From positions 1 through 62,673 of IMG/VR virus record IMGVR_UViG_3300006751_000010: 62,673 nucleotides of DNA; one strand, given 5' to 3'. The notes beneath the pieces were generated by a model, which saw only the letters and a list, made by a program, of their open reading frames with translations, was not told the DNA's origin and ran no database searches. Numbering within the stretch: position 1 is the first letter of the stretch; every line of letters begins with the position of its first letter. The position numbers were made by a program, and so were the translations under genes. Source of the stretch: a virus. Taxonomy: Duplodnaviria > Caudoviricetes. Positions 2,828-18,982 of this stretch are shown piece by piece.

Positions 2828-2828
2828 A

Positions 2829-3452: not shown

Positions 3453-3455
3453 ATT

Positions 3456-4736
3456 TTATGCTTTTTGTAAATTAGGTAATTTTAATTTTGGTAATTCATT
3501 TGTTGATTTTAACTTTGGTAATTCTAATTTTACTTGTTGCGGAATATCTGATACATTTTGTTGAATCATATTAATAATATCTTCATATGATTTAGATATA
3601 TGTTGTTTAGTAAAATTAGATCTAACAAAATATCTTTGCCGTTTTGCTAATTCAGACCATTTTTTATAATTTTTTAAAATGTCTTCAAACATTTTACTAG
3701 CATATTTATAATCTACAGAAAACCATTTTGCGCCTTTAATAAGAAATTTATCTCTAGCAGATTTATGAATTGGGGTTAATTGACCTGGTAAGGCACATAT
3801 AAAATCTTTTTTGAGAAAATCAACCTGTCCGGAATAATGTGGAGCGAGTATTGGTTTTCCTATAGAGCTAAATTCTAATAAAGGCCGGCCAAACCCTTCT
3901 GATTTTGTAAATGAAACCATTGCTTTAATTTTAGGGTGATTATATAATGCATTCATTTCGCGCGTAGTTAAATCTCCATGTAATAAATATACTGACGGTA
4001 ATTTATTATTTACAAATAATTTAGATATTTCGTTAATACGATTTTCTATATCTAATCTATCTGATACAGAATATGTAGCTCCGCTAGTTTTTAATATTAA
4101 AGCTGGGGTATTGTTTTTATTTTTATATGTATTAAAAAAGCAATGTAATAACCCAGAAAGATTTTTTCTATCTTCTCCTAAATATCCTTTTAACCAATGT
4201 CCTACACATAAAAACGCTTTAGACTCTTTTACTTGTTGATCGATAACTGAGATATTTGTTGTTACATTTTTATTATCATATAATGTATCATCAAAATATT
4301 CAGAAATAACTTGTATATTTGTTGTTATTGGTTTATTATGTTGTTTTGCTGTATCTTCAAATACTTTCTTCGTAAAATTACTAGGAACAATAGTTATTTG
4401 CATTTTATTTATATTATCAATCCATTCAGGAGGACAAATATCTCCTTCAGTGCCAGCCGTAACGCCGATATTATATTTGCCGACGGGTTGAAATTCATTG
4501 GGTACTGTAATTTGTACCCAAATATCTGGTTGTGATGTTAGTGGTAAAGGAATTATCTGGGCTTGCCACTCGGTTGGTATAGGATATGTAAATGGTGTAT
4601 GTCCCCATGGCATGGATAATAATTTAATGTTCCAATCATTTGGTTTTTTATCAAAAAAATTACTAATAACTTCTCGAGCGTGATGGCCATAGCCACTTTG
4701 TGTAGCAACTGGTGATGATATGATTACTGTTCGCAT
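3456..4736 (-). CDS. GT4-family (GT-B) glycosyltransferase
   Basis: N-terminal SGYG; EGFGRPLLE (E-x7-E) signature. Confidence 0.85.
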   Translation of the reverse strand: MRTVIISSPVATQSGYGHHAREVISNFFDKKPNDWNIKLLSMPWGHTPFTYPIPTEWQAQIIPLPLTSQPDIWVQITVPNEFQPVGKYNIGVTAGTEGDICPPEWIDNINKMQITIVPSNFTKKVFEDTAKQHNKPITTNIQVISEYFDDTLYDNKNVTTNISVIDQQVKESKAFLCVGHWLKGYLGEDRKNLSGLLHCFFNTYKNKNNTPALILKTSGATYSVSDRLDIENRINEISKLFVNNKLPSVYLLHGDLTTREMNALYNHPKIKAMVSFTKSEGFGRPLLEFSSIGKPILAPHYSGQVDFLKKDFICALPGQLTPIHKSARDKFLIKGAKWFSVDYKYASKMFEDILKNYKKWSELAKRQRYFVRSNFTKQHISKSYEDIINMIQQNVSDIPQQVKLELPKLKSTNELPKLKLPNLQKA

Positions 4737-6232
4737 ACTATTCCTAAATTTTTATATTTTTTTGGTGTTACTTTATTTAATGTATATCTTAATTTTGGTT
4801 GTTTTGGTACTTCAAATAAATAATTAATCATTTCGATCATTTTATTTCCCATTTGTTGTCCGGTTAATCCATTTTCTAAACAAAATGATCTTCCAGCAGC
4901 GCCACAATCTTTTCTAACATCGGGTGGTGTTTCCCACCATTGCATAATAGCATTAGCTACATCTTCAAATTTGACTCTATCATCAAAAATATATGGTGTA
5001 GCTGGAGATCCTTGTAATGATCTATTGCTAGGAAAAACAGGAGCCACCCAACGGCCATGTGTTTTATAGTTGCCTCGGTGATTTGTTGCGAAATCACCTG
5101 TAAATTGTAGCCATTTTCCATTTTCATCTAAAAAGCCGCATTGATCTTGTAATCCGCCAGTTACATTATTAATAATTGGAGTTTCAGATAATAATGCTTC
5201 TGTACTACTGAGTCCCCATCCTTCATTTGATGCTATATTAATAACGACATCTGCTACATTATACATTGCGTTTAATTCAGGTGCGGATAATTTTGATTCA
5301 GAAAATAATATTTTACAATTTGGTGCTAATATGTCTCCGATCGCTCTTAAATCTGTTCCATTGCTATCTACAACAACAGTATGCATTAATAATGCTACTC
5401 TAGATTGATCTTCTTTTGGTAATTTATCAACAAATGTTTTAAATGATAATATTACATCTCCTGGTTGTTTTCTTCTTATATTTCGATTATTCCAAAATAC
5501 AATAAAATCTACATTATTTTTTAATTTAATCTCTTTATGTAATTTTTTATATAATTCATCAGAATCATCTAATGGTTTAAATATATTATGATTTAATCCA
5601 TGAGGAACATATCCAGTAATTGTAGTATCTGAATATTTAAATTGATCTAATTTATTATCTTTATCATAATTTATAACATTAAATCCATTTTGAGTTAAAA
5701 CTTCCCGGTGGATGTTATCAGACTGACTACTTATACCCATAATAAGATCACAACTTGCATAAAATGGAGCATTCCACATTGGATATGGGAGATCATCCCA
5801 TATAGAATAATAAATAATAGGTATTCCGTATGTTGTTTTAATTTCATGTTCTATTTGATATAGCCACGTCCAATATCTAGGATCAGTAAAATGAAAAATA
5901 GCATCTGGTTTTTCTTGTGTCAGTAATGCAAATAATATATTTCTATCTCCATAACCAGACCACGGAATAATTTTTACTGATGCATCGTGTATTCCGGATT
6001 CTTTTGCGAATTCTGTAGATACGTCTACCCCTTTAGCATGATCCGGATGTTTAAGTGCTGCTCCTAATTGAACCCAATCATATTCTTTTACTGTATTTAA
6101 AATTATTTCTTTACTAATAGTACCTATTCCAGATGGCAATCTTAAATCATCTGAAAGTAATAAAATTTTTTTCTTTTTAATTTTAGGAGTAGTGGAGTCT
6201 ATTTTTTTTAATTTTGGCAATTTTATTTCCAT
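4724..6232 (-). CDS. GT4-family (GT-B) glycosyltransferase
   Basis: LLLSDD..SGIG; RRKQP; SNEGWGLSSTEAL (E-x7-E). Confidence 0.85.
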   Translation of the reverse strand: MEIKLPKLKKIDSTTPKIKKKKILLLSDDLRLPSGIGTISKEIILNTVKEYDWVQLGAALKHPDHAKGVDVSTEFAKESGIHDASVKIIPWSGYGDRNILFALLTQEKPDAIFHFTDPRYWTWLYQIEHEIKTTYGIPIIYYSIWDDLPYPMWNAPFYASCDLIMGISSQSDNIHREVLTQNGFNVINYDKDNKLDQFKYSDTTITGYVPHGLNHNIFKPLDDSDELYKKLHKEIKLKNNVDFIVFWNNRNIRRKQPGDVILSFKTFVDKLPKEDQSRVALLMHTVVVDSNGTDLRAIGDILAPNCKILFSESKLSAPELNAMYNVADVVINIASNEGWGLSSTEALLSETPIINNVTGGLQDQCGFLDENGKWLQFTGDFATNHRGNYKTHGRWVAPVFPSNRSLQGSPATPYIFDDRVKFEDVANAIMQWWETPPDVRKDCGAAGRSFCLENGLTGQQMGNKMIEMINYLFEVPKQPKLRYTLNKVTPKKYKNLGIVCEQ

Positions 6233-6259
6233 TGTAACCTTTTACTTTTATAACTTTTA

Positions 6260-6268
6260 TATAAATAT
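6260..6268 (-). promoter_or_regulatory. late-type promoter motif ATATTTATA upstream of GT cluster
   Basis: Same 9-mer as found before structural genes. Confidence 0.6.
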
Positions 6269-6270
6269 TA

Positions 6271-6675
6271 TTAACCTAAAATAACTACTGGTTTTTTTAG
6301 TTTATTTATGTTAGTATATGCTGTTTTTAATACAGGATCTAATTTTTCTTCGTTAGTCATAATAATCATGTAATCACAATTTTGTGCTAATAATTTCATT
6401 CTATGATGTAATTGACTGAAATGATATTGTTTTCCGTAATATGATTTGGGCATGGCTGAATATAAATTATATCCTGAAAATGATGGATTATATTCTTGAT
6501 ATTTCAATCCAAATTCTAATGTATATTTTCTAACCATACTATTGGCACCTTCTTTTCCTCCTGCTCCTAATACAGTAACATCATCACCGAAACGATGTTT
6601 AAGTTCTGTTAAAGTTTTTTGAACTTTTCTTCGATTTTGCCAATTTGTATTTCCTAGTACCGCTACTTGTTTCAT
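6271..6675 (-). CDS. SLOG/YspA-like (DUF2493-like) protein
   Basis: Likely start is MKQVAVLG at 6675 (ATGA overlap). Rossmannoid 'VAVLG...GAGGKEGAN...AQNCDYMII...KKPVVIL'. Confidence 0.55.
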   Translation of the reverse strand: MKQVAVLGNTNWQNRRKVQKTLTELKHRFGDDVTVLGAGGKEGANSMVRKYTLEFGLKYQEYNPSFSGYNLYSAMPKSYYGKQYHFSQLHHRMKLLAQNCDYMIIMTNEEKLDPVLKTAYTNINKLKKPVVILG

Positions 6676-7628
6676 TCTCGTATTCTCTCCTGTTTTGGAC
6701 AATTAACTTCATCTGTTTTAAATGGGCACCATTTGCAATGTTTATTACCTTTGCCGGCAATTGCTAAATAGTTAGCGGAGGTATTTTTATTTCCGTCTTC
6801 ATCAAAACAATTTGATATAAATGCATCTATACTTTTTTGAACTTTTCTTTGAGTAACAGTACCAGCTGCTGGTCTGTGAATTTGTATACGTTTTTGTGGA
6901 AACATTGAATTTTCAATTAATTTTCTTTTAACTATAAAAAATTCAACATCTATTTTTTCTTTAGGTATTCCAAATTGTTTAGAAAAATAATTTTTATATG
7001 CAACTAATTGTGCTGATTTTATATTATCCGCTTTTTGCCATTTATTCCAACCCATTCGGCTAGTTTTTATATCATATATAGTTATACTATTAGTTGGAAT
7101 ATGTCTAACAACTAAATCTATAAATCCATACCAATATACAGACGAATTTTCTTCAGAAGCTTGAGAACATAATTCAACTTCGATTCCAACTAATTCATAA
7201 TTTTTAGTAGAAAAATATTGAGCTCGTTTCTTTTTAAACCAATCTAATATAGCAATACCATCTTCTAAATATTCAGTTAATTCGTCAGGATTAGAAAAAT
7301 GTTCTCCATTATTTTTTTCTACAGATTCAGTATATTCTTTTCTTAAATTATTAATTAACATCGTAGATAAATCTAATTTATCTGCTTGTTTAACTGAGTC
7401 TGTATATAATATGGTTAAATAGTCTTGAAGTGTTTCATGAAATGCAGTACCAAAACTTAAATTAATGCCATAATTAAATGGAGCTAATCCGTCTATATAT
7501 GATAATTTCCATTGTTTAGGACATTTTTCATACATTGACCATTGTGAGTATGATATACGTCTAGGTACTTGTGTTGCATCCCTTAAGGATAACTTATAAA
7601 TTGGATTAATATAATTGCCGCTTTTCAT
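6672..7628 (-). CDS. PD-(D/E)xK RecB/Cas4-like exonuclease
   Basis: SYSQ..CP, FGTAFHE, GFIDLV, IYDIKT, QLVAY, C-terminal CKWCPF..C (Fe-S ligands). Confidence 0.85.
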   Translation of the reverse strand: MKSGNYINPIYKLSLRDATQVPRRISYSQWSMYEKCPKQWKLSYIDGLAPFNYGINLSFGTAFHETLQDYLTILYTDSVKQADKLDLSTMLINNLRKEYTESVEKNNGEHFSNPDELTEYLEDGIAILDWFKKKRAQYFSTKNYELVGIEVELCSQASEENSSVYWYGFIDLVVRHIPTNSITIYDIKTSRMGWNKWQKADNIKSAQLVAYKNYFSKQFGIPKEKIDVEFFIVKRKLIENSMFPQKRIQIHRPAAGTVTQRKVQKSIDAFISNCFDEDGNKNTSANYLAIAGKGNKHCKWCPFKTDEVNCPKQERIRE

Positions 7629-7664
7629 TATTTATATAATAATAAATTTTACAATAATATCCAA

Positions 7665-8108
7665 TTATTTTATACCTTTTAATAATCGTTTTTTATCTGT
7701 TAATGAATATCCATATAATGTTAAAATATATTCACATTTTTCTTTGTTCATTAATCCAATATATTCAGTAGCTTCAGATTGACTTATTTGATAATGCTCT
7801 GCTAATTGTTTAACTAACTCTTTATTGTATTTATCTGCAGCTTTCCCTTTTATATATTTTGCAAAGCTTTTAGATTGAGGTAACATATCATGATATAATC
7901 GATAAGTGTCTTTTGGAGACAACGTGCCTATAGTAAAATGTTGAAATGCATTGATTATTTCAACTAATTCTTGTCTCATTGATAGCCATCTATTAACGAT
8001 GAATGGAGAAAATTTCTTTTGGTCTATATCAGAATATTTATTCCAATCTTTCTTTTTATGGGTTATCCCAGCAATAAAATCAAATATAGTTGCAGGTTTT
8101 TTTGACAT
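7665..8108 (-). CDS. clamp loader small subunit (gp62-like)
   Basis: 'FSPFIVNRWLSM' and 'AEHYQISQSEATEY' resemble gp62; lies downstream of the gp44/gp45-like genes. Confidence 0.65.
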   Translation of the reverse strand: MSKKPATIFDFIAGITHKKKDWNKYSDIDQKKFSPFIVNRWLSMRQELVEIINAFQHFTIGTLSPKDTYRLYHDMLPQSKSFAKYIKGKAADKYNKELVKQLAEHYQISQSEATEYIGLMNKEKCEYILTLYGYSLTDKKRLLKGIK

Positions 8109-8109
8109 A

Positions 8110-8319
8110 TTATAATTTATATTTTTGTATATATTTTTCCTTTAAACGTTTGCCCATTCCAATTTCTAATATAATTGCATTTTCGGGTATTCCAATTATT
8201 TTCTTTTGGTTAAGTATATCATCTATACATTTATTCCGGAAAGTTTTAATTTTTGTTCTAGCATTAGACCTATTAGATGTTTTAAAAACTATACTTACTA
8301 AATCTTTATGTATTTTCAT
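8110..8319 (-). CDS. hypothetical basic protein
   Basis: 69-aa ORF tiling tightly between neighbours. Confidence 0.55.
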   Translation of the reverse strand: MKIHKDLVSIVFKTSNRSNARTKIKTFRNKCIDDILNQKKIIGIPENAIILEIGMGKRLKEKYIQKYKL

Positions 8320-8561
8320 TTATCATTTGATTTAATATCGTCTTCTTTTTCTTGTTCAACTGGTCTAAATTCTTCTGGTATAAAGCCACAATCATCGCAA
8401 CGAAATGTAGGTATTGGTATTACCGAGTCTTGTGCTTCACCTGTTAATAATTTAGAAACTTTATTAATTGCTAAAACTTGTCGAAAGTATACACCTCCAC
8501 AATTATCGCATGTTATCGGCTTCATATCCGACGGTTTGATTTTTGGGTTTAAGTCCATCAT
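8316..8561 (-). CDS. small zinc-ribbon protein
   Basis: CDNC...CDDC pairs in 81 aa. Confidence 0.65.
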   Translation of the reverse strand: MMDLNPKIKPSDMKPITCDNCGGVYFRQVLAINKVSKLLTGEAQDSVIPIPTFRCDDCGFIPEEFRPVEQEKEDDIKSNDK

Positions 8562-8564
8562 AAT

Positions 8565-9491
8565 TTATATCTCATTTAAAAGTTTAACAAACATGGCCAT
8601 GGCATTTATTTCATGATCAACTACCATGGCATCTTGGTATTGAGCTTCAGCTATAATTAGTATAACCGGAGCAATATGTCCTATAGCAAATTCATCTAAA
8701 TTATCAAATAAAAATCTATATAGTGCAGTAAAATCTCTAACTTTACTATCAGCTATTTTTTGTCTTATTTTAGTAAATGATTGCTTTTTATTTTTTTCAT
8801 TTTTTAATATATCTAATACCTCTGTCATATAATTAGCTTGTGCGACACTATTTTTGTCTAAAACTAATTTATTTTTTACAACGTGGCTTTGTGCAGAATT
8901 AATTGCACGACGAATATCTGGATAACTGGAATTAATAATTACAGCAATATCTTTAACATCAAATTCAACTTCATTGTCAGTTAATACTGTTACTAACCTC
9001 TGTGCTACATCTGTTTTATTAGGAGGAGTAATAGCAAATGTCTGACATCTGGATTGTATTGGATCTATAATTTTTTCAACGTAATTACATGTTAATATAA
9101 ATCTTGTAGTTTTGCTATATGTTTCCATTAAATTACGTAATGCAGCTTGTGCATTAGGTGTTAGATAATCTGCTTCATCTAATATGATTATTTTCCATCG
9201 TTTAAATCCAACAGTTGAAGCATATCTTTTTATCTTATCTCTAACGGCGTCTACTGAGTTTTCATCTGATGCATTTATATACATTATATCAGCGTCTACT
9301 GAATTTGCAATAATTTTAGATAAAGTAGTTTTTCCTGTTCCTGCAGGACCGTAAAATAATAAATGAGGAACGTCTCCGTTTTCAATAAAAATTTTAACTT
9401 TATCAATAATATGCTCATTACCAATATAGCCATCTAATGTATCTGGGCGAAATGATTCTACCCATAATGTATTTTCTTTTGTTGCAAACAT
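8565..9491 (-). CDS. clamp loader AAA+ subunit (gp44/RFC small subunit-like)
   Basis: LWVE.FRP, GPAGTGKT Walker A, ILDEAD Walker B, SRC motif. Likely start MFATKEN at 9491. Confidence 0.95.
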   Translation of the reverse strand: MFATKENTLWVESFRPDTLDGYIGNEHIIDKVKIFIENGDVPHLLFYGPAGTGKTTLSKIIANSVDADIMYINASDENSVDAVRDKIKRYASTVGFKRWKIIILDEADYLTPNAQAALRNLMETYSKTTRFILTCNYVEKIIDPIQSRCQTFAITPPNKTDVAQRLVTVLTDNEVEFDVKDIAVIINSSYPDIRRAINSAQSHVVKNKLVLDKNSVAQANYMTEVLDILKNEKNKKQSFTKIRQKIADSKVRDFTALYRFLFDNLDEFAIGHIAPVILIIAEAQYQDAMVVDHEINAMAMFVKLLNEI

Positions 9492-9493
9492 AA

Positions 9494-10201
9494 TTAATTT
9501 TGTAATTGAACTAACCAATAATTTGAATCAAAATCATTTCCCGTAAAATCTATACGAGCTAATCCATCTGGCGAAATATACATTTTACCAGAGTCTCCTT
9601 TATTTGCTACAAGAACTTCTTTAAGTTTATCTGCAGAAAAACATATTGGTTCCATTTCATTAGTCCCTCCATCAATTTCAAAAGAAATATTATCTGAATT
9701 AATCGTTGAATAATTAATGATGAATTTAATTTTTCCTTGTTGCACTTGCACTGCAAAATTATTAGCATCTGGTAAAGCATTTTTTGCTTTTATAAATTTA
9801 GATGTAAATTCATCATTTAAATCAATTGTAACTTGATATTCAGGTTCTGCATTAATAGCAGGAACTCCAGGTATTACTGTTGTATCTGCTAACATAAATG
9901 TTGCTTTAGTGGTACCTTCTGATATTTTCATTGCATAATTTTTACCTGCAGCTTCTTGAACATCGATATTTAAATTTTCACCTACAGCTGATAACATTTT
10001 TATTAATGCGCCGGTGTGATTAATTCCTAATTCTCCATTCATGAACGGATCTGTTTTCCATTTTACTTTACCAACTACTGTTTGATCAGCGTCTATTAAA
10101 TCACAACAAACTGTGTCTGTGTTATTTTTAAGAACAACTGCTTCACAATTTCCAGCAAGATAATATCTGTTGATAAAAGATTGTAATTTACTTTTTTCCA
10201 T
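9494..10201 (-). CDS. DNA sliding clamp (gp45/PCNA-like)
   Basis: 235-aa acidic beta-rich protein immediately upstream of the clamp loader; PCNA-like size and C-terminal pattern. Confidence 0.65.
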   Translation of the reverse strand: MEKSKLQSFINRYYLAGNCEAVVLKNNTDTVCCDLIDADQTVVGKVKWKTDPFMNGELGINHTGALIKMLSAVGENLNIDVQEAAGKNYAMKISEGTTKATFMLADTTVIPGVPAINAEPEYQVTIDLNDEFTSKFIKAKNALPDANNFAVQVQQGKIKFIINYSTINSDNISFEIDGGTNEMEPICFSADKLKEVLVANKGDSGKMYISPDGLARIDFTGNDFDSNYWLVQLQN

Positions 10202-10211
10202 TTGTTACTTT

Positions 10212-11462
10212 TTATAATTTAAAAAATTCGTTAAACTTATTTGCGTCTGTAGTAGAAATACTATCTCCTCCAAACTTTTTATATGTCTTTTTATATGTTG
10301 CGTATACATTTAATGCATTATCTGGATCTGCAAACATTTCATGTAATGATAAAATTACATTGAATAATTGAGTGGGTATTGCAGTTTCTAATAATTCTAC
10401 ATGACTATCAACCATTTGATTGATTTCTTCTGCTATTTTTACATATAGATGAGTATTATGTATAACCATTCTAGGCATACCTTCTTGAGAATATCTATCT
10501 AACCCTGTTGATGTCTGTCCTCCCAAATAATCATATGTAAAATCTTTACATGCCGGGCAATCTAAACTACAAGGAACATGTTTAGTTTTATCTATAGTTA
10601 CACTTTCTTTTCCTTGTTTAATATGAGTTTTTCTACGATATTCTGCATTTTTAGGAAAATATAATTCTGTAAATGTTTGGGTCTTATGATTTCCAGAATG
10701 TAAATATGTTCCAAATACTGGATATTGTCCTGGAGAAGATGAATCTGTTGATAATTGTACTCGTCCATTTGTATATTCATTTAATAACTTCTGTAATGTC
10801 GATAATATATAAAAGTCTGATATTTTACTTATTCCTAATAAATGAATAAATTGTACATGTTTCTTTTCAAATTCTCTTTCTTTTAACATTAATGCAACAA
10901 CATACATAAAGTCTACTAATTTTTTAGGACCTCCAATACACCAGCCATTAAAATCAAAATCTTTAAATTTATGATACCATTCATGATATTCTTCACTATA
11001 TGTACCTTGAATAACATTTAAAAATTTAGTTTTTCCACTTTGATGTTTTTCAAACCATTTAAAATTATCAAAACTAATGTTCATAGAATCATTAAATCTA
11101 TTTTCATATGTAGCTCTAGGTGGTATATCTAAATTAGCTGCTACATCTGAGTTAGCTTCAAGCCAATGAAATATTTTTTCTCGTATTGTAGTATCCCATT
11201 TTAAAGCACCAGTTGCTATTTGAAATCCGCCACTATCTCCAAATACAAATACATCATCTTCTAATCCTATTTGTTGCCGGAAATCCATTTTTTTATAATG
11301 ATGACCTGCTGTAATTAAAAAATAAGGATGTCTCCAATCTGCAGGATATTCTGAAGAAAAGAATCTTGTTGTAGTTCCGTCTTCAAATTTAGTATTCTTT
11401 TTAAAAGCAGATACCATTGATCCTGCAGATAACGAAGGAAAATATATAAAATTTTTATCCAT
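10212..11462 (-). CDS. dpdA: DpdA-like 7-deazaguanine DNA transglycosylase (TGT fold)
   Basis: TGT motifs GDSGGFQ, LDIPP, VIQG, GWCIGG, HLLG, DSSS and Zn site CSLDCPAC...HN; folE/queD/queE nearby. Likely start MDKNF at 11462 (TAATG overlap). A DNA rather than tRNA target is inferred from context. Confidence 0.8.
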   Translation of the reverse strand: MDKNFIYFPSLSAGSMVSAFKKNTKFEDGTTTRFFSSEYPADWRHPYFLITAGHHYKKMDFRQQIGLEDDVFVFGDSGGFQIATGALKWDTTIREKIFHWLEANSDVAANLDIPPRATYENRFNDSMNISFDNFKWFEKHQSGKTKFLNVIQGTYSEEYHEWYHKFKDFDFNGWCIGGPKKLVDFMYVVALMLKEREFEKKHVQFIHLLGISKISDFYILSTLQKLLNEYTNGRVQLSTDSSSPGQYPVFGTYLHSGNHKTQTFTELYFPKNAEYRRKTHIKQGKESVTIDKTKHVPCSLDCPACKDFTYDYLGGQTSTGLDRYSQEGMPRMVIHNTHLYVKIAEEINQMVDSHVELLETAIPTQLFNVILSLHEMFADPDNALNVYATYKKTYKKFGGDSISTTDANKFNEFFKL

Positions 11463-11647
11463 TACTCTATAATTTCCCATTGACTTTTTGGATTTTCTAT
11501 TTTTTGTATATTATTTAATATAAAAGTAACTATTTCTGCTACATCTTTTTTTAGATATCCTTTTTTATCTAATTTATTTGCTAAACCAATTAATGGTGTT
11601 TCGATAGTATTTTTTATTTCTTCGATTCCTTGTTGATTAATTTTCAT
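11462..11647 (-). CDS. hypothetical protein (61 aa)
   Basis: SD-like AAGGA upstream; its stop overlaps the dpdA start. Confidence 0.55.
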   Translation of the reverse strand: MKINQQGIEEIKNTIETPLIGLANKLDKKGYLKKDVAEIVTFILNNIQKIENPKSQWEIIE

Positions 11648-11656
11648 AATTATTCC

Positions 11657-12820
11657 TTATTTTTTATTTAAAAGTCGTTTACAATATTCTGATTCATGCC
11701 ATATATTTATTTCATGATCAATTCCATTTGTTACTATATGACCTTCCATTTGTCGTCCTAAATCACTTAAATATGTTATATTATAAGCTGGGTCTGTTTT
11801 TGTCATAACTTCTCGTAATCTAATAACTGCTGAATTAACATTAAATGCAGTATATAATCGATCAGGTGGTATAAATTCTGGAAATGATCTAAAATTTGGA
11901 TATACTAAATCACAACCAAATGTCGTTGCTTCTAACACCGTCCAAGAAACATAATCTTGAAGAGCACAATTAAATTGTATTCTGGCACTTGCTAATTCAG
12001 TATAATATTCTTCTTTAGTAAGATTATTTAATAATTTAAATCTAGGTTGTCTTTGAGCTAATTCTTCCATTGCATCTATAACTCCAGGCATCATTGATTT
12101 AAATTCTTTACCGGATGTAGTGACGTGCCATTCTGCAGAAGGTAATTTTTTTAAAAATTGTTCTGCAACTGACAACATAAAAAATGGATTCTTTTCTTTG
12201 TCTAATCTGCTAGAATATATAACATTACATGGTTTCCTTTCCGGTAATATATCTTTTAATTTAGCTTCTGTTAATTCTTTATGTATTGGTAATGACACTA
12301 CGTGAATTGGAGCTTCAAAACCAGCTTGTCTTAATTGTTCTTTGTGTATAGTGCTACCAACAAATATACCGGTCATTCTTTTATCGAGTCCTAATTCAAA
12401 TCCTCTCATCCAATGTCTCATAGGGTATGTAAAATCATATTCATCTACACTTTGTGCGTGAAGCATTGCATATATTTCAATTGAAATACCGTATAAATCT
12501 AATGCATATAATATAGACTCAATTCCAGGATGCCAATAATCTTGCAAAAATATAACATCGCCATTTTTAACCATATCTTTATTAAGCATATCCAGAAAAT
12601 TGCTACATTGACTCATAGCAAACTTTCCTCTACCTACTGCATCTAATACAGCTCCTACTTTAATTTGCTGATCAGGGTCAAACTCCCCCTCCACATCTAT
12701 AAATTTAATTTTACCAGCATCAACATAAGGTTGAAATGTAGCTGGCATCCATTCTTTAGATAACTGATAAGTATATCTTGCCTTTAATGGCTCTAATCCA
12801 AAATAAAATATGTTTTTCAT
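11657..12820 (-). CDS. GT-B (GT4-like) glycosyltransferase within the deazaguanine operon
   Basis: SSRLDKEKNP, 'LQDYVSWTVLEA', 'YPNFRSFPE'. Likely start MKNIF at 12820, overlapping the dpdL-like stop (ATGA). Confidence 0.75.
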   Translation of the reverse strand: MKNIFYFGLEPLKARYTYQLSKEWMPATFQPYVDAGKIKFIDVEGEFDPDQQIKVGAVLDAVGRGKFAMSQCSNFLDMLNKDMVKNGDVIFLQDYWHPGIESILYALDLYGISIEIYAMLHAQSVDEYDFTYPMRHWMRGFELGLDKRMTGIFVGSTIHKEQLRQAGFEAPIHVVSLPIHKELTEAKLKDILPERKPCNVIYSSRLDKEKNPFFMLSVAEQFLKKLPSAEWHVTTSGKEFKSMMPGVIDAMEELAQRQPRFKLLNNLTKEEYYTELASARIQFNCALQDYVSWTVLEATTFGCDLVYPNFRSFPEFIPPDRLYTAFNVNSAVIRLREVMTKTDPAYNITYLSDLGRQMEGHIVTNGIDHEINIWHESEYCKRLLNKK

Positions 12821-13161
12821 CTTTCTACTATTGCACCATTTTCCCAATCTTCCCATACTTCAACTTTGTATAAGTAACCAGGATTATTATTTAATAACCA
12901 CTCTCCAATATCCTCACAACTCATTCGACCAAACTTTAATATATTACCACCAAAATTTGTTCTTAATTGTTTTTTTATTCTTCTTTGCATTAAAATAAAT
13001 TCTTCATCTCTATCTGTGTGACTTACTGAAGCATAACAACGAAATCCAAATTGATGTCGATGATTGTCAGATAAAAATGCTACTTCTGGAAATTCTTCTT
13101 TAGCTTCTGGCCAGCAATGAAATCCTTCTATGCTAAATGATACTACTACTGAATATTTCAT
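12817..13161 (-). CDS. dpdL: QueD-paralog T-fold protein, DpdL-like (putative CDG decarboxylase)
   Basis: H.W..A, LSDNHRHQF (LxxxHRHxF), SCEDIG, VWEDWENGA. It is a second QueD-like protein besides the canonical queD. Confidence 0.65.
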   Translation of the reverse strand: MKYSVVVSFSIEGFHCWPEAKEEFPEVAFLSDNHRHQFGFRCYASVSHTDRDEEFILMQRRIKKQLRTNFGGNILKFGRMSCEDIGEWLLNNNPGYLYKVEVWEDWENGAIVER

Positions 13162-13607
13162 GATTGTTCGTCAAATTTATAATTGTCAGGATTCATTTCC
13201 ATCATATTACATTTCATGATTTGATGAACACGATACCAACCAGCATCTATACTTAATGTATCGGTATCTTTTAGTTTTTGTAATGCATTATCTTGTATAC
13301 GGTATATAATATGACATCTATTAACCAAGTCAGGTGGTAGCTCATCTAAGGTATGCTTATCCGCTTCAATTGTAACTACATTATTAGTTGAATCTAATAT
13401 ATGTCTTATAGTTTCTAATTCTGGTATCATGTCATAATCAGATAAAAATATTTTATTCATATATTCAATAGTAAAATAATAATGAGGATAATCTGTAAAT
13501 GTAACATCTAAATCTTGATCTTCATTCAATGAACGAACAAACCATGTCATCATATCAGAATAACGGCCTTCTACTTCTCTACCTCGCCATTGATTCTTAC
13601 CGTACAT
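13158..13607 (-). CDS. hypothetical protein, first gene of the modification operon
   Basis: 149 aa; own promoter-like element upstream; ATGA-coupled to the dpdL-like gene. Confidence 0.6.
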   Translation of the reverse strand: MYGKNQWRGREVEGRYSDMMTWFVRSLNEDQDLDVTFTDYPHYYFTIEYMNKIFLSDYDMIPELETIRHILDSTNNVVTIEADKHTLDELPPDLVNRCHIIYRIQDNALQKLKDTDTLSIDAGWYRVHQIMKCNMMEMNPDNYKFDEQS

Positions 13608-13621
13608 ATATTTTTATTTTT

Positions 13622-13651
13622 AATATAATAATTTTATTATTAATTTCCAAA
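13622..13651 (-). promoter_or_regulatory. promoter-like TTGGAA-N17-TATATT upstream of the modification operon
   Basis: Variant of the class above. Confidence 0.4.
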
Positions 13652-16150
13652 GGAAAAGAATTTATTTACTGAATTATTTTCTGGAAATTTACCCCAATTC
13701 ATTGCAGTATAAAAATCATCTAATTTATTTTGTAACTCTCGTTGAAATGTTTTATTTCGATCTACATATGTTTCTACAAAATCAACTATTTGTTTAGGAT
13801 CTTCATAACCCCGTAATGCTATTGTATCAAACCCAAAAGGATTATTTTTAAGATAAATCCATTTAATCTTTTCTCCATTAAAAATAGGATCTATATCTTT
13901 AATATTATATTTATGCAATAAGTCATTATAATTTATTGCAGATTTTACATGTGCAGGTGTTCCTAATAGATACCCCGTAAATGGTTTTCTGTTTTTAGTA
14001 TATTTTGATATAGCTTTTACACCAGAATTTTTCATTACATTTACAACAGGTGATGTTTGTATTTGTTTTTTAAAATCATGAATCATATCCGTAGTAGCAG
14101 TTTTTCCATTTTGTTTAAGAATATGCCATAATGTTTCTTTCATTATCTTTTTAAAATCTGTAGGGAAAGACGATCTAACTACATCTAATCCTTTTATATC
14201 AATTTTATTAGTTGGCTTACCTTCTTTAAAAATAACCCACTGAGCATATCTTTTCTTTGCAATCCATACCCCAGACTTTGCAACATATTCTTGTTTAATT
14301 TGCCAACGATGAGTTTTAGTATTATGAAATACATCTGCATATTTATCATACATTATATTTACATGTTTTTGTATTTCATTTGCAACTTCATTAGTCTTTT
14401 CAATCATGAATTGTTCGTCAGTTTCATCATAATTAGGATATCGTTTTTCTATTAAAGGTAAACTAGATACAAATGTTGAATCAGTATCTGTATAAAATGA
14501 AAATTCTGCTTTATGACCAGTAGGATTAATAAAATGATCTTTGCCTACCTCTTTTGCATAATATGCATTAATTACTTTTGCTGAAAATTTAATTACGCTT
14601 TGGCCTGTTGCTGTAATGGCTCCGGCATTATCTAAATCATGAAATCTAAATGTTTTTAATCCTAATACTCCATAAAACGAATTAAGTAGTACTTTTTGTG
14701 TAAGTTGCATTGCATCATAAAATTTATATTTTTCAGATCCAACTTCATGATTATCTCTTTCTGTTTTAAATTCAACCCGCTCATCAAACCACTTTTCTAA
14801 TATAGTAGGAAGAAATCCTTTTTTGGTAGTCTGGTATACAGCTCCATTTGTTGCTATTGTATAATTATTTTCTTGTAACCATTGTTTAATATCAGGAATA
14901 TCATCATATCCCATTTTAACTGCAACAGGTTCTTTATTTAAAAGACAATGTTCATCCCAATTATTAATAACTCCTATTTTAGTTTCTGGAGATATATTTA
15001 AACTCATAATAATACTAGGATATAGAGAAGTTAAATCTAAATCATATATCCATTTATATAATCCAGGAATAGGAGGCATAACATATGCTCCAGCTAATGC
15101 GTCTTGTTTTTCTTCTTGTACAAATCTAAATTGTTTATTTGGAGCAACTAATCCGTTTCTTTTTAAATCTACTACTGCTGCACCATCTAAATATTTAGAT
15201 GCATAATATACATCTTCATATGGAACATGTCCTTTATGACATATAGTTCTAGCTAAATTTAATAATTGTAACTTTTCATCCATTTCATAAACCAAATCAA
15301 CATCTGTCATGTTATATTCAATAAACTTGTGAATATCAGTTTCAAATAATTCATTTAAATCGCCATCATATTCAATTTTACCTTTGCCTAATTCTTGTTT
15401 ACCAACTGTGTCTAATCGATAATTAGGAAGTTCTGTGTATGTAAAGTTTTTATATAATTTTATATAATCTAAACTTGATACTCCAAAGATTTTATATTGC
15501 TCTCGGTGTTTATTCCAATGAACAATTCCTGCAGGAGATAGTTTTTTTATTGCTTGAGCTCCTAATATTTTTTTAATTCTATTAAGCAGATATGGAATAT
15601 CAAATCCATCTGTATTCCACCCGGTTATAACAGTAGGAGAAATTTCACTAAAATAATTAATAAATTTAGTTAATAGATTGGCTTCATTATCAAAAACTTC
15701 AACCGTATAATTATCTCCATGTATCTTATTTTCTGATAATCGATTATCTTCATCTAATACTAATACTTTTCGATCTTTTCCTAATTTATCATGATATGCT
15801 ATCGAAGTTATTTTATTTCTAGCTTCGGTGGGCGTGGAATATCCATTTTCATCTCTTTCAACTTCTATATCAAAAAAGAAATCTCGATGTCCTGTAGATA
15901 CTAAATCAGACTCATGGTATAAATCAATAAGTGTACGAACTTCTTCATTTAAATCAGATTCATATGCATTTGGATTATCTTTATGATTGCCAGTAACACG
16001 TTTTAATTTTGTGCCATCTAATGATTGATATTTACCAGAAACATGAGGAACATATGCATAAGGTTTAAAATTAAACTTTTGATAACCTAACTCATCATCC
16101 CATACGTGTATAGTATTAGACTTTTTATCATAACCAATTGCTTGATACAT
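13640..16150 (-). CDS. family B DNA polymerase (gp43-like)
   Basis: Exo I FFDIEV, Exo II GWNTDGFDIPY, DLTSLYPS, KVLLNSFYG, YTDTDS, KKRY. Confidence 0.97.
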   Translation of the reverse strand: MYQAIGYDKKSNTIHVWDDELGYQKFNFKPYAYVPHVSGKYQSLDGTKLKRVTGNHKDNPNAYESDLNEEVRTLIDLYHESDLVSTGHRDFFFDIEVERDENGYSTPTEARNKITSIAYHDKLGKDRKVLVLDEDNRLSENKIHGDNYTVEVFDNEANLLTKFINYFSEISPTVITGWNTDGFDIPYLLNRIKKILGAQAIKKLSPAGIVHWNKHREQYKIFGVSSLDYIKLYKNFTYTELPNYRLDTVGKQELGKGKIEYDGDLNELFETDIHKFIEYNMTDVDLVYEMDEKLQLLNLARTICHKGHVPYEDVYYASKYLDGAAVVDLKRNGLVAPNKQFRFVQEEKQDALAGAYVMPPIPGLYKWIYDLDLTSLYPSIIMSLNISPETKIGVINNWDEHCLLNKEPVAVKMGYDDIPDIKQWLQENNYTIATNGAVYQTTKKGFLPTILEKWFDERVEFKTERDNHEVGSEKYKFYDAMQLTQKVLLNSFYGVLGLKTFRFHDLDNAGAITATGQSVIKFSAKVINAYYAKEVGKDHFINPTGHKAEFSFYTDTDSTFVSSLPLIEKRYPNYDETDEQFMIEKTNEVANEIQKHVNIMYDKYADVFHNTKTHRWQIKQEYVAKSGVWIAKKRYAQWVIFKEGKPTNKIDIKGLDVVRSSFPTDFKKIMKETLWHILKQNGKTATTDMIHDFKKQIQTSPVVNVMKNSGVKAISKYTKNRKPFTGYLLGTPAHVKSAINYNDLLHKYNIKDIDPIFNGEKIKWIYLKNNPFGFDTIALRGYEDPKQIVDFVETYVDRNKTFQRELQNKLDDFYTAMNWGKFPENNSVNKFFSFGN

Positions 16151-16474: not shown

Positions 16475-17254
16475 TTAAACTCCTCGTTCTGTATTAAATG
16501 CTATGATATGATCTCGTCCTGTCATATTATATCCTTCTTCGGCACACATATAGAATACTATTGGATACATTAATATTAATTGTTTCCTTGTATCTCCTGC
16601 TGGCATTACAAATGTTTTATGTTTTGGAATATTCATCTTGACTCTAAAATCTTCTATTTCTTTTAAATTTGATACAGTACCATTCCATACAGGTTTATAG
16701 TGGTAGTCGTGGTGGTATTTTAAAGTTTGATCAATCGCTTCGTAATTCAATCTCAATCGATTATGTGTTTTAATCATTTTTTCGTCAACCACTTTACCAG
16801 TTGGCGTCTTAGCATCCAAAACGGGAATACTATTACTAAACTTAGGACTGAGACTAATAAGATTAATAGGATAATCAGTAGGTAAAAAATGTGAACCTTC
16901 AGTCTCAATAGTGATAAAAATTTCTCTTTCATTTGCAAAATGTGTTAATTCATTAACTAATGCTGGATGTATGGTTGGTGATCCTCCAGTTAACATCATC
17001 TCTTTAATATGAGGGTTTTCATCATATATTTTAATAATATCATTAAAATTAAATGTTCCTTTTTCTGGATGAATAGAAGTATACCAACTATCACACCAAC
17101 CACCTTCACCAAAATAACATCGATGGGTACATCCGGTTGTTCTAACTGCTATAGTAGGCCGGCCTAATCTACTGCCTTCGGATTGAACACATCTGTATAC
17201 TTCTAATACTGGTAATGTCTTATTATAATCTGTTATTCGTTTCAATTGTTTCAT
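16475..17254 (-). CDS. queE: 7-carboxy-7-deazaguanine synthase (radical SAM)
   Basis: QSEG..GRPT.AVRTTGC, CTHRC..CDS, LTGGSP, TIETEG, SLSPK. Confidence 0.9.
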   Translation of the reverse strand: MKQLKRITDYNKTLPVLEVYRCVQSEGSRLGRPTIAVRTTGCTHRCYFGEGGWCDSWYTSIHPEKGTFNFNDIIKIYDENPHIKEMMLTGGSPTIHPALVNELTHFANEREIFITIETEGSHFLPTDYPINLISLSPKFSNSIPVLDAKTPTGKVVDEKMIKTHNRLRLNYEAIDQTLKYHHDYHYKPVWNGTVSNLKEIEDFRVKMNIPKHKTFVMPAGDTRKQLILMYPIVFYMCAEEGYNMTGRDHIIAFNTERGV

Positions 17255-17256
17255 AG

Positions 17257-17628
17257 TTAAAAAGGAAGTTCATCATCAAAATCTATTGTTAGTTGGGTAT
17301 CATCTGCTTTTTTGGATATGGCATCTTTCAATAAAAATATTTCATTTTCTAATGCTTCTACCCGTTTACATAAAATTTTTAATTCTTTTATTTCTGGAGA
17401 ATTTTGTCTAACTATTGCAGATAAAGGTTCTGCTGGTTTGGCTTTAAAATATTCTTCAAGAAACATTCTTGGATATGTAATTACTCCTTCGTAATTTGCA
17501 TTATAATCTTTAGGTAATTCACGATATCCTGTTTTTATTTTATGTTCTTGTGAATATCTATATACATCTTTTCCGTGATCACTCTTTCTGCCTAAATATT
17601 CATATAATGATAAGTATTCTTCTGACAT
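17257..17628 (-). CDS. hypothetical protein with coiled coil and SSB-like acidic tail
   Basis: 123 aa ending in DFDDELPF. Confidence 0.6.
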   Translation of the reverse strand: MSEEYLSLYEYLGRKSDHGKDVYRYSQEHKIKTGYRELPKDYNANYEGVITYPRMFLEEYFKAKPAEPLSAIVRQNSPEIKELKILCKRVEALENEIFLLKDAISKKADDTQLTIDFDDELPF

Positions 17629-17697: not shown

Positions 17698-18243
17698 TTA
17701 TAGTACTCCGCCATTTTCTCTTCCATTTACAAAACCAATTATTTTTTCTGGTTCTTTTTTGTTAATTTCATAATATACTGATGAATTTTTTTCGTTCTCA
17801 AAACATTCTACTTTTACGACTTTACATCTTCCAGCATCTGTTTTAGATAGAACTTCATTAAATTTATCATAAACTAATTTAGCACAACTCTCTGCTCCCA
17901 TTTTATCTAAAAAATGAACTTTACATAAACCCATTTGAGCCATTTGTTCGAATATATCTCGATATGGATCATTTGATTGGATTAATGTTGTATGGTCCCA
18001 CATATCATTCATCCATGATTTTAAACCATTTCCCTTTGGTGCATCTTTAAATCCACCATAATCAACTATCCAATTCATATCATCTAATCCATCATTTTCA
18101 TCAAATGGCGTATTAGACTCAAACCACACTTTAAATTTTAAAGCATATCCATGTAGTAACTGACAATGTGAATGTTGTGCTTTCCATTGTCTTATTGCAA
18201 TTGAATAATTATCAAATATTTTAGTTGATTGAAATTTACCCAT
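17698..18243 (-). CDS. queD: 6-carboxy-5,6,7,8-tetrahydropterin synthase
   Basis: HCQLLHGY (CxxxHGH-like), WIVDYG, WDHT, AESCA, V.CFEN.KNS. Confidence 0.9.
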   Translation of the reverse strand: MGKFQSTKIFDNYSIAIRQWKAQHSHCQLLHGYALKFKVWFESNTPFDENDGLDDMNWIVDYGGFKDAPKGNGLKSWMNDMWDHTTLIQSNDPYRDIFEQMAQMGLCKVHFLDKMGAESCAKLVYDKFNEVLSKTDAGRCKVVKVECFENEKNSSVYYEINKKEPEKIIGFVNGRENGGVL

Positions 18244-18943
18244 TATAATAACCTTTTATAAATTCATAAAACTCTGCTCTAGTAGCAGTATCATCTTTAA
18301 ATGCTCCTGTTAGTTTAGAAGTTTTCATAGATGCTCCTCCATGTTTAACTCCTCTACACTGAACGCAATTATGAGTAGCTTCAATCATAACTGCTACTCC
18401 TTTATTATCATTAATAATAGTATTTATAGAATTATGAATAGCAACTGTTAATTGTTCTTGTATTGCTCCTCTTCTTGCAAAATGCTCTACTAATCTATTT
18501 AATTTACTTAATCCAATTACTTTACTATCTTTGCCTGGTATATATGCTACATGAACTTTACCCATAATAGTTTGATGATGATGTGAACACATCGATGTTA
18601 ATGGAATACCTCCTTCAAAAACCATGCCGTCATAACCATCACTAGGAAATGCGGTAATATCTGGAGCTTTATCATATCTACCAGCCCATAGATCATTAAC
18701 ATATGCTTTTGCTACACGGTTGGGTGTATTATTTGAATTAGGATCATTTTCCCAATCAACACCTAATGCAGTTAAAAATTCTCCATAATAATAAGCTGCA
18801 GCTTCAATAATAGAATTTTTTTCTTCTTGAGATAAATTACTATCAGATCCTTTAATTATTTGTTTATTTTCTAATTGTTTAGATATTCCATTAGCAAACC
18901 CAGCTTTTACTAATTCTAAATTTTTTCTTTGTGTCTTTGTCAT
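18236..18943 (-). CDS. folE: GTP cyclohydrolase I
   Basis: TPNRVAK, SMCSHH, GLSKLNR, IQEQLT, HNCVQCRG. Confidence 0.96.
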   Translation of the reverse strand: MTKTQRKNLELVKAGFANGISKQLENKQIIKGSDSNLSQEEKNSIIEAAAYYYGEFLTALGVDWENDPNSNNTPNRVAKAYVNDLWAGRYDKAPDITAFPSDGYDGMVFEGGIPLTSMCSHHHQTIMGKVHVAYIPGKDSKVIGLSKLNRLVEHFARRGAIQEQLTVAIHNSINTIINDNKGVAVMIEATHNCVQCRGVKHGGASMKTSKLTGAFKDDTATRAEFYEFIKGYYNG

Positions 18944-18953
18944 AACTAATTAT

Positions 18954-18982
18954 ATTATAATAAACTTTAATTTATTTTCAAA
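18954..18982 (-). promoter_or_regulatory. early/middle-type promoter TTTGAA-N17-TATAAT (folE)
   Basis: Same architecture before the helicase and SSB genes. Confidence 0.55.

Follow-up and report, generated by a model that had tools for sequence, protein, structure and literature searches.

A survey published in 2023 describes, in the accessible part of its text, eight phage 7-deazaguanine DNA bases, all of which are without a sugar (PMC10516641). The same text defines DpdL by an LxxxHRHxF motif that replaces the CxxxHGH motif of QueD, and proposes that the protein is a decarboxylase. In the DpdL system of the Cellulophaga phage phiST, dDG was measured and was reported to replace G completely (Cui et al. 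2023, PMC10516641). According to the available text, the dpdL and dpdA genes of phage ACP17 gave no dDG in E. coli when they were introduced without the glycosyltransferase (GT), leading the authors to suggest that other enzymes may be needed; the corresponding pair of phiST likewise failed (PMC10516641). As described in the accessible part of another report, the DNA of phage PA5oct resists enzymes with G in their sites, its chemistry being left undetermined there, and the phage is targeted by the END family of modification-sensing nucleases (PMC12191111).

Here we analyzed a DNA stretch of 62,673 nucleotides (hereafter the window), which is the entire record of an uncultured, marine, T4-like phage and covers only about 37% of a genome. 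The phiST system and the window both have FolE, QueD, and QueE but no QueC, a DpdL in which LxxxHRHxF is present, a TGT-superfamily transglycosylase, and replication genes alongside. Unlike the window, phiST has no match to the GT and no homologue of orf149, and carries MazG and a kinase-like ATPase instead. The DpdA3 of phiST (CGPG_00065), whose subfamily also includes proteins of Campylobacter phages, consists of 259 aa, compared with 416 aa for DpdA of the window, and a BLASTP comparison of the two detected no similarity (E 0.31).

Organization of the locus

The five ORFs of the initial annotation are all present where they had been placed, on the minus strand: orf149 (13158..13607), the DpdL-type QueD paralog (12817..13161, 114 aa), the GT-B glycosyltransferase (11657..12820), the small orf61 (11462..11647), and the TGT-fold, DpdA-like putative DNA transglycosylase of the long form (10212..11480, 416 or 422 aa depending on the start). 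The cluster is flanked by DNA polymerase and sliding clamp genes. ATGA overlaps join orf149 to DpdL and DpdL to the GT, the second only with the GT start at 12820, which gives 387 aa; the first ATG of this frame is at 12856. The 387-aa form is also the one that gene callers give for proteins of the same or nearly the same sequence. orf61 and DpdA meet in a TAATG junction if DpdA starts at 11462, with the in-frame ATG at 11480 as an alternative. A promoter-like element had also been noticed before orf149, but only 9 of 12 positions match (13650..13622), and such matches are not enriched over chance in the window (68 found versus 72.9 expected). The top match of the region (11/12) is located at 18981..18954, immediately upstream of FolE. 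A separate cluster of GT genes, the late GT cluster of the initial annotation, is present at 304-6232.

PHROG matches confirmed three biosynthetic genes upstream of the cluster on the same strand, namely FolE (GTP cyclohydrolase I; 18236..18943; phrog_2197, E 3.7e-62), QueD (CPH4 synthase; 17698..18243; phrog_2389, E 1.3e-33), and QueE (CDG synthase; 16475..17254; phrog_2076, E 3.1e-47). The queE DNA is 72-74% identical to queE of Flavobacterium and Cellulophaga phages. The reported lack of queC and queF in the window also holds, with zero matches for queC and only a sub-threshold T-fold echo within FolE for queF. Two 100%-complete relatives likewise have no QueC, nor do PA5oct, BCSR5, BUCT-ZZ01, and Phosso.

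DpdL and DpdA

The sequence FLSDNHRHQF fits the LxxxHRHxF motif, as expected for the QueD paralog that had been recognized here. The protein matches phrog_17812 (E 8.3e-21) and is 38% identical to phiST DpdL (CGPG_00067; tblastn E 6e-14, profile E 6.8e-23). The window DpdL has no direct Pfam QueD match, and the DpdL profile matches PDB 2dj6, which has the QueD/PTPS T-fold, at E 0.0015. LxxxHRHxF is kept in 17 of 19 aligned DpdLs; PA5oct has HFH, and one other sequence lacks the final Phe. The genome context of DpdL is also found in the window (FolE, QueD, QueE, and DpdA present; QueC absent). The DpdLs showed no division by GT presence, and their motifs are the same in GT-linked and GT-less forms.

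The TGT-fold assignment is supported by PF01702 (E 2.4e-7; 30.6 bits against a cut-off of 26.3) in a match covering residues 109-185 only, and the TIGR00449 score (E 3e-6) is under its cut-off. The aspartate of DSGGxQ and a later nucleophile aspartate are the catalytic signatures of TGT. The window DpdA contains GDSGGFQ and STDSSS; across 11 divergent long DpdAs, D-S-G-G-x-Q, H-x-L-G, and the later Asp do not vary. DpdA groups with the long-form proteins of PA5oct (profile E 1.3e-19) and ACP17, and is the sole TGT-like gene within the window. Its phage context and its position in the replication module suggest that it acts on DNA rather than tRNA.

Fold and family of the glycosyltransferase

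Because both Pfam matches of the window GT itself are below cut-off (E 0.011 and 0.024; 14.7 and 16.5 bits against 26.4 and 27), its GT-B assignment is based on family-level matches and a structure model, which bear out the initial call. Of 69 family members, 52 match Glycos_transf_1 at E up to 1 (4.5e-10 at best), and 8 match PF13439, a GT4-type N-terminal domain. In a search of PDB sequences, the family profile matched WlaC (6eji) at E 1.5e-4, and neither the alpha- nor the beta-glucosyltransferase of T4 was among its 13 matches (E up to 1). The predicted structure is of high confidence (pLDDT 95.8, pTM 0.93) and shows strand-helix alternation in two halves. Its best Foldseek matches are MshA, sucrose-phosphate synthase, BshA, and GlgM (E 5e-13 to 5e-12), and the probability is 1.00 and the TM score 0.44-0.67 for MshA, BshA, GlgM, and glycogen synthase, as read from the top ranks among at least 500 matches. 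Judging from this model, the closest solved structures appear to be retaining GT4 enzymes with small-molecule acceptors (MshA and BshA). Among the matches listed, the acceptors are small molecules, proteins, or polymers rather than DNA, and the T4 DNA glucosyltransferases are absent.

The alignment of the 69 GT sequences has 11 invariant columns. R15, D94, G99, R205, and K210 are invariant and E297 is almost so; R205, K210, and E297 are candidates for the donor-sugar-binding Arg/Lys/Glu of the C-terminal domain. The family is very common, as indicated by 955 clusters at 50% identity for the GT and 1041 homologues at 90% clustering for orf149. Outside phages the GT is nearly absent, with 185,579 species genomes yielding 4 short MAG contigs.

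Gene neighborhoods of the glycosyltransferase

DpdL and DpdA adjoin the GT in all 80 close marine loci by tblastn; with an iterated profile, the same loci gave DpdL in 78 and DpdA in 80. The GT also lies inside a 7-deazaguanine cluster, in shuffled gene order, in each of the 16 loci in which GT identity is below 60%. DpdL is within 2.7 kb in 14 of these; of the other two, one is at the contig edge of a DpdL-bearing lineage and one is a Gat-QueC cluster. Cultured phages with the GT in the cluster include PA5oct, ACP17, BUDD, BCSR5, BUCT-ZZ01, and Phosso. The order is DpdL-GT-DpdA in the window, DpdA-GT-DpdL in ACP17 and PA5oct, GT-DpdA-DpdL in BUDD, and DpdA-DpdL-GT in BUCT-ZZ01. The co-occurrence and synteny check proposed in the initial annotation placed the GT in such clusters in every lineage examined. 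Part of the common gene order could be inherited, as the phages behind these loci are related ones of the T4-like or jumbo type.

The initial annotation had coupled the GT to dpdL. Its functional tie to the deazaguanine genes stood, but the tightest unit is orf149-GT-DpdA instead; DpdL is usually adjacent and sometimes elsewhere in the genome. Across 95 distinct GT loci, DpdA was found in 87 (iterated profile), orf149 in 69, and orf61 in 23. In three loci, approximately 8 kb upstream of the GT is free of DpdL. Among 50,697 phage records, the GT was detected in 22, DpdL in 27, and both in 15. GT-less DpdL phages are common (11 of the 27 DpdL records), suggesting that the GT is an optional addition.

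In PhiXhv-12, an apparent exception, the GT stands directly after a PIG-L family GlcNAc de-N-acetylase, with a Gat-QueC fusion and a GFO/IDH/MocA oxidoreductase also beside it. An FkbM methyltransferase adjoins the GT in one other locus, and a second GT in BUCT-ZZ01. We considered a GT that requires a free C7 and is thus specific to DpdL systems, and rejected this because of the Gat-QueC neighbor in PhiXhv-12 and the non-adjacent DpdL in some relatives. The occurrence of the GT family beside Gat-QueC suggests that the enzyme is not specific to the decarboxylated base.

orf149 and orf61

orf149 is conserved and has no recognized fold. It gave zero matches in Pfam, PHROG, NCBIfam, and PADLOC, and nothing below E 0.66 among PDB sequences; its 120 listed homologues lack Pfam domains. 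Its Atlas feature matches, all below 0.9 and to dynein-type clusters, were treated as noise. Invariant residues in 26 sequences are W7, G9, E11, E13, G14, T21, F23, H42, Y44, T79, E81, L112, D116, Y143, and D146. The family adjoins the GT in several lineages, and a 155-aa protein directly upstream of the BCSR5 GT aligns with orf149 at an hhalign probability of 71% (E 3.6e-5). Kinship with DpdL was rejected (hhalign probability 0.3%), as was the 132-aa neighbor in ACP17 as a homologue (hhalign 1.9%, HMM E 0.43), which has the N-terminal motif alone in common. The small orf61 has no family match except a sub-threshold Sigma54_CBD (Pfam, E 0.043; 14 bits against a cut-off of 22.9). It is restricted to part of the lineage, and no homologue was found in the distant phage loci.

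Proposed pathway and alternative explanations

On balance, we lean slightly toward a 7-deazaguanine DNA modification without QueC, with a glycosylated 7-deazaguanine in DNA as the product. FolE, QueD, and QueE belong to families whose route to 7-carboxy-7-deazaguanine is established, and would make this compound here. DpdL may then strip its carboxyl group, an activity proposed in the literature. The GT4-type GT-B enzyme would move a sugar from an NDP-sugar to the deazaguanine, either as the free base before insertion or as the base already in DNA. As its family suggests, the long DpdA would swap guanine in phage DNA for the deazaguanine, and orf149 may be a fourth component, one that accompanies the GT. 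Virion DNA would end up with a sugar-bearing 7-deazaguanine, which is predicted to protect it from host nucleases. A search for nanopore runs, in which such a base might show up as miscalled G, listed none. The initial annotation had proposed a sugar on the inserted base. The parts that stood are the tie of the GT to deazaguanine genes, its nature as a real GT-B enzyme, and the absence of QueC from complete relatives; the sugar itself is what we infer.

As for the order of the last two steps, we tentatively propose, as a possibility about which we have considerable doubt, that the GT glycosylates the free 7-deazaguanine base and that the long DpdA then inserts the sugar-bearing base into DNA. 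This order is suggested by HuiG, MshA, and BshA (see below), which act on small molecules. A parallel is queuine, a bulky base that the TGT of eukaryotes places in tRNA.

The acceptor might instead lie elsewhere, for example in a different DNA base, a protein of the phage or its host, or a polymer of the host envelope, with proximity reflecting an early replication module. The genes do sit between DNA polymerase and the sliding clamp, GT4 acceptors are very diverse, and the separate GT cluster suggests that the phage glycosylates for other ends too. However, the genes stay adjacent despite reshuffled order in at least seven lineages, the GT family is nearly confined to phages, and 21 of the 22 cultured-phage GT records are in deazaguanine clusters or have DpdL, the uninspected one being record 30-2. 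Moreover, a gene of the thymidylate-synthase (ThyA) family was not found in one complete relative, which makes a hydroxymethyl-pyrimidine acceptor unlikely. We therefore regard an acceptor outside the deazaguanine pathway as unlikely.

Quite unlikely, in our estimate, is a GT that acts in the deazaguanine pathway without its sugar appearing in the final base, whether through a transient intermediate or carrier or as a partner of DpdA. Such a role would suit the small-molecule GTs that are its structural neighbors and the locking of the GT to DpdA. It would also suit the inactivity of ACP17 dpdA and dpdL without the GT in the accessible report (PMC10516641); the failure of the phiST pair, however, means that this result does not discriminate. 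The deacetylase, oxidoreductase, and methyltransferase genes by the GT argue for a persisting, elaborated sugar rather than a leaving group. Furthermore, no transglycosylase is known to us for which a glycosylated base is a required intermediate. A pathway that stops at plain dDG or dCDG, with the GT inactive or redundant, would parallel the full replacement of G by dDG reported for phiST in the accessible text (PMC10516641) and the likeness of DpdL motifs irrespective of the GT, but is very improbable given the strong conservation of the GT in sequence and its retention in all 80 close relatives.

Implications

Our literature search found no description of a sugar-bearing deazaguanine in DNA, in agreement with the initial annotation, and no paper linking a GT with DNA deazaguanine genes. 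To our knowledge, all DNA glycosylations are on hydroxymethyl-pyrimidines and use a hydroxyl handle, which 7-deazaguanine does not have. This point speaks against the proposed product, as does the lack of DNA-acting enzymes among the Foldseek matches listed. If the glycosylated product is correct, DNA hypermodification would gain a new class, a glycosylated deazapurine, which would also be the first sugar-bearing purine in DNA and would arise from a four-gene module of DpdL, orf149, GT, and long DpdA. Ocean T4-like phages would carry this module in abundance, and cultured phages such as PA5oct and ACP17 would have it too. A base of this kind would matter for how phages evade restriction and CRISPR, for modification-sensing nucleases (the END family, for example), and for the way environmental phage DNA is sequenced and handled with enzymes. 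The missing GT may explain the lack of product from ACP17 dpdL and dpdA in E. coli. With several module-bearing phages in culture, the prediction is open to immediate testing.

Comparison with known glycosyltransferase systems

In the biosynthesis of mycothiol (MshA/MshB) and bacillithiol (BshA/BshB), a retaining GT4 GlcNAc transferase is followed by a PIG-L/LmbE deacetylase. In structure, the GT model is matched best by MshA (3c48) and BshA (6n1x, 3mbo, and 5d00), with a sequence identity of only 10-15%; the acceptors of these enzymes are inositol phosphate and malate. The window is without a deacetylase, and the pairing with such an enzyme is paralleled in PhiXhv-12.

Huimycin and dapiramicin of actinomycetes resemble the window in having a GT gene beside FolE, QueD, and QueE homologues. 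In the accessible description of huimycin, HuiG, encoded beside FolE, QueD, QueE, and QueC, attaches GlcNAc to a 7-deazapurine at its 2-amino group (PMC7439116). The likeness between HuiG and the phage GT is one of a common Pfam family rather than of compared sequences, PF13439 being reported for the HuiG-type family in the available part of a preprint (bioRxiv 10.64898/2026.04.15.718813). Unlike the predicted product of the window, huimycin is, in its accessible description, a free secondary metabolite; it derives from preQ0 following O6-methylation, and its pathway has QueC but no DpdA.

The alpha- and beta-glucosyltransferases of T4 glucosylate 5-hydroxymethylcytosine in DNA. The acceptor in T4 is a hydroxymethyl group, which is missing from deazaguanine, and one complete relative has no ThyA-family hydroxymethylase candidate. 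The T4 system and the window nevertheless both involve phage GT-B enzymes, and in T4 the sugar is placed on an unusual base and protects the DNA from host nucleases.

Organization of the gene cluster

The gene cluster is confirmed in the window, which is the entire record and represents approximately 37% of one genome. Judged by its polymerase, the closest relative in culture is Microcystis phage Mel-JY01 (45% identity). On the minus strand, the reading order begins with FolE (18943..18236) and QueD (18243..17698), followed by orf123 (17628..17257), QueE (17254..16475), a GroES-like ORF, and a family-B DNA polymerase (16150..13640). After the polymerase come orf149 (13607..13158), a 114-aa QueD paralog designated DpdL (13161..12817), a GT-B glycosyltransferase (GT), the small ORF orf61 (11647..11462), and a TGT-fold protein designated DpdA (end 10212), beyond which a sliding clamp and a clamp loader lie on the same strand. 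A GT start at 12820 is supported by identical or nearly identical proteins, which are called at 387 aa. With this start, and if DpdA begins at 11462, both ATGA overlaps described in the initial annotation are present, as is its TAATG junction. The reported LxxxHRHxF motif is borne out by FLSDNHRHQF in DpdL. The reported promoter-like element is a 9-of-12 match, a level of similarity that shows no enrichment (68 observed versus 72.9 expected).

Elsewhere in the window, positions 304-6232 hold further glycosyltransferase-like genes, separate from the cluster above: TOD1/MUCI70-like and GT2 types, together with a 502-aa protein whose Glycos_transf_1 match falls below threshold. A SLOG/YspA-family protein lies at 6271-6702 (25.8 bits, under the cut-off of 28.2). 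Besides the family-B polymerase, the window has a family-A polymerase-like protein of 440 aa at 27145-28467.

Precursor genes, DpdL, and DpdA

FolE, QueD, and QueE strongly match their own PHROG families. The QueD of the window reads C-QLL-H-G-Y, versus the CxxxHGH signature quoted in PMC10516641, and relatives carry two QueD types, approximately 70-91% and 40% identical to it. A search for QueC (PF06508) was negative for the window, for three related records located via the GT (two of them, of 173 and 169 kb, with an estimated completeness of 100%), and for the full records of the cultured phages PA5oct, BCSR5, BUCT-ZZ01, and Phosso; 13 of 14 control genomes were matched. The initially noted absence of queC from the window is confirmed and extends to two complete relatives and four full cultured-phage records.

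The 114-aa DpdL matches phrog_17812 (E 8.3e-21) and is 38% identical to the gene of Cellulophaga phage phiST named DpdL by Cui et al.; its profile reaches PDB 2dj6, a PTPS/QueD-like entry (E 0.0015). DpdL is defined by the LxxxHRHxF motif and is a proposed, unproven decarboxylase of 7-carboxy-7-deazaguanine (CDG) (PMC10516641). According to the same source, G is wholly replaced by 2'-deoxy-7-deazaguanosine (dDG, 267 Da) in phiST DNA, and E. coli carrying dpdL and dpdA of either phiST or phage ACP17 did not produce dDG. A MazG gene lies directly upstream of DpdL in phiST. In three loci, DpdL forms the C-terminal portion of a longer protein of 279-301 aa (L131, 6387-7223; L150, 7081-7983; and L189 from Chryseobacterium phage MA9V-3, 6452-7333); the N-terminal halves scanned, those of L131 and L150, have no Pfam match. 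The TGT-fold protein scores above the Pfam TGT cut-off, and the DSGGxQ, HxLG, and Asp motifs are invariant in it and in ten divergent long relatives. No similarity was found between it and the short phiST DpdA3.

Linkage of the GT to deazaguanine genes

Among close relatives, the order orf149-DpdL-GT-(orf61)-DpdA-clamp is kept in all 80 loci fetched via the GT (tblastn). An iterated profile search of 95 distinct GT loci detected DpdA in 87, DpdL in 84, orf149 in 69, and orf61 in 23, with many of the absences being contig edges. When the GT is less than 60% identical to that of the window (16 distant loci), DpdL is found within 2.7 kb in 14 loci, where it mostly overlaps the GT and FolE, QueD, or QueE is close by. 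Of the remaining two loci, L135 belongs to the L140 lineage and stops at a contig edge. The other is from PhiXhv-12 (L087, Xanthomonas phage, PV764601.1), in which the gene annotated as GlmS, located two genes before the GT, encodes a fusion of GATase and QueC (PF06508, E 2.3e-49). PhiXhv-12 was the record inspected; the same arrangement is expected in four similar records, whose tblastn statistics are identical. With the GT of PhiXhv-12 beside GATase-QueC, every one of the 16 distant loci has a deazaguanine context. The GT co-occurs with deazaguanine genes in close and distant loci alike, in varied order.

This variation is evident in cultured phages. The order is DpdA-GT-DpdL and then QueE in PA5oct; QueD, FolE, an uncharacterised gene, and DpdA-GT-DpdL-QueE in ACP17; and FolE, an uncharacterised gene, and GT-DpdA-DpdL-QueE in BUDD. 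The GT of BCSR5 is inside the deazaguanine cluster, and Phosso has DpdL-GT followed by FolE and QueE, with a DpdA-like gene approximately 170 kb off. BUCT-ZZ01 (L084, Synechococcus phage) has QueE, a phosphoribosyltransferase, QueD, FolE, a second GT, a DpdA-like gene, DpdL, and the GT. In 50,697 phage records, the GT was matched in 22, DpdL in 27, and both in 15.

Coupling of the GT to DpdA and orf149 is tight, but its proposed coupling to DpdL does not extend to all relatives. Three loci (L136, L164, and L172) have the order QueD-QueE-FolE-PolB-orf149-GT-DpdA-clamp, and no DpdL was found within approximately 8 kb on either side of the GT; in this sublineage, DpdL has been lost from between orf149 and the GT. 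The 72-kb record of L136 has a DpdL homologue (42% identity) more than 20 kb distant, and none was found in the 85-kb fragment carrying L172. DpdL-bearing phage records without a GT match numbered 11 of 27, and the profile found no GT in three such loci inspected (D479, MA9V-3, and RHph_I1_18). No partition was seen when DpdL sequences were sorted by GT presence. The long-DpdA profile had no match in eight GT loci, some of which have unassigned ORFs of 290-350 aa downstream.

Fold of the GT and conservation of orf149

By itself, the GT of the window is weakly recognized by Pfam. Its family comprises 955 clusters at 50% identity, and Glycos_transf_1 matches 52 of 69 members. The AlphaFold2 model built from 69 sequences (pLDDT 95.8, pTM 0.93) falls among retaining GT4 GT-B enzymes in Foldseek, with matches to MshA, BshA, sucrose-phosphate synthase, GlgM, glycogen synthase, OtsA, SenB, and LmbT. 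Among the matches listed, the nearest folds are enzymes that do not act on DNA, and T4 DNA glucosyltransferase appears in neither the PDB sequence nor the Foldseek matches. The 69-sequence alignment has 11 invariant columns, including R205 and K210, and E297 is almost invariant. Outside phages, a search of 185,579 species genomes found the close subfamily only on four short MAG contigs.

orf149 has 1041 homologues, and an alignment of 26 sequences shows a set of invariant acidic, His, and aromatic residues. Searches including Pfam, PHROGs, NCBIfam, and PADLOC found no family, PDB relative, or informative Atlas neighbour for it. Beyond the marine group, homology is solid in L134, L161, and L179, moderate in BCSR5 (hhalign 71%), weak in BUDD (hhalign 20%), and not significant in ACP17; no homologue was found in PA5oct, BUCT-ZZ01, or Phosso.

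Sugar-tailoring neighbours

In L131, the DpdL fusion is separated from the GT by an FkbM-family methyltransferase (7057-7980; PF05050, E 2.6e-18). Approximately 700 bases downstream of its GT, L179 has a gene (9781-10524; PF02592, E 2e-29) of the YhhQ/Vut_1 transporter family, which transports queuosine precursors. The BUCT-ZZ01 region at 4093-7353 includes the phosphoribosyltransferase, annotated as a xanthine-guanine phosphoribosyltransferase, and the second GT (447 aa; Glyco_trans_1_4, E 3.4e-5), which hint at either a disaccharide or a route at the level of nucleotides.

The PhiXhv-12 cluster (1483-10740) is compact and on one strand. Its first gene resembles a Leu/Phe-tRNA protein transferase and is followed by a GNAT/Acetyltransf_6 protein of 545 aa and three uncharacterised genes. 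Next come the Gat-QueC fusion wrongly annotated as GlmS, a GlcNAc de-N-acetylase of the PIG-L family, the GT, and, at the end, a GFO/IDH/MocA oxidoreductase. The cluster has the look of a deazaguanine modification of greater complexity, one that includes a sugar and perhaps an aminoacyl group. A GT next to a PIG-L deacetylase recalls MshA/MshB and BshA/BshB, the top structural matches, so that UDP-GlcNAc would be a sensible starting assumption for the sugar donor in this lineage.

Proposed pathway

FolE, QueD, and QueE would convert GTP to CDG, as established for their families, and DpdL would decarboxylate CDG, as proposed in the literature. DpdA would insert the base into DNA, as suggested by the TGT family and the measured phage systems. 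The GT, as the new element, would install a sugar, which may be elaborated in some lineages, because it is conserved, has a GT4 fold, is locked to DpdA and orf149, and is accompanied by tailoring genes in relatives. We lean slightly towards a sugar-bearing deazaguanine in the DNA. The glycosylated 7-deazaguanine of the initial annotation is partly supported: the genes are strongly linked, and the chemistry is predicted.

Because the GT family occurs with DpdL, with distant DpdL, and with Gat-QueC, the acceptor site may be common to all deazaguanines; such a shared site, for example the 2-amino group, is no less likely than C7. The 2-amino group of a 7-deazapurine is glycosylated in huimycin and dapiramicin (PMC7439116). 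The small-molecule structural neighbours and the order DpdL-GT-DpdA are weakly consistent with a sugar being added to the free base ahead of its insertion.

Comparison with known systems

A literature search of article text retrieved no paper linking a GT to DNA deazaguanines. The term 'glycosyl' occurs 0 times in the available text of PMC10516641, and a jumbo-phage review notes the PA5oct deazaguanine system in a text without a GT link (PMC7824862). The modified G of PA5oct was inferred from restriction resistance in PMC12191111, which did not determine its chemistry. The closest known system is the dDG pathway of phiST, from which the window departs in having the GT and orf149 and in a long DpdA whose sequence shows no relationship to that of DpdA3.
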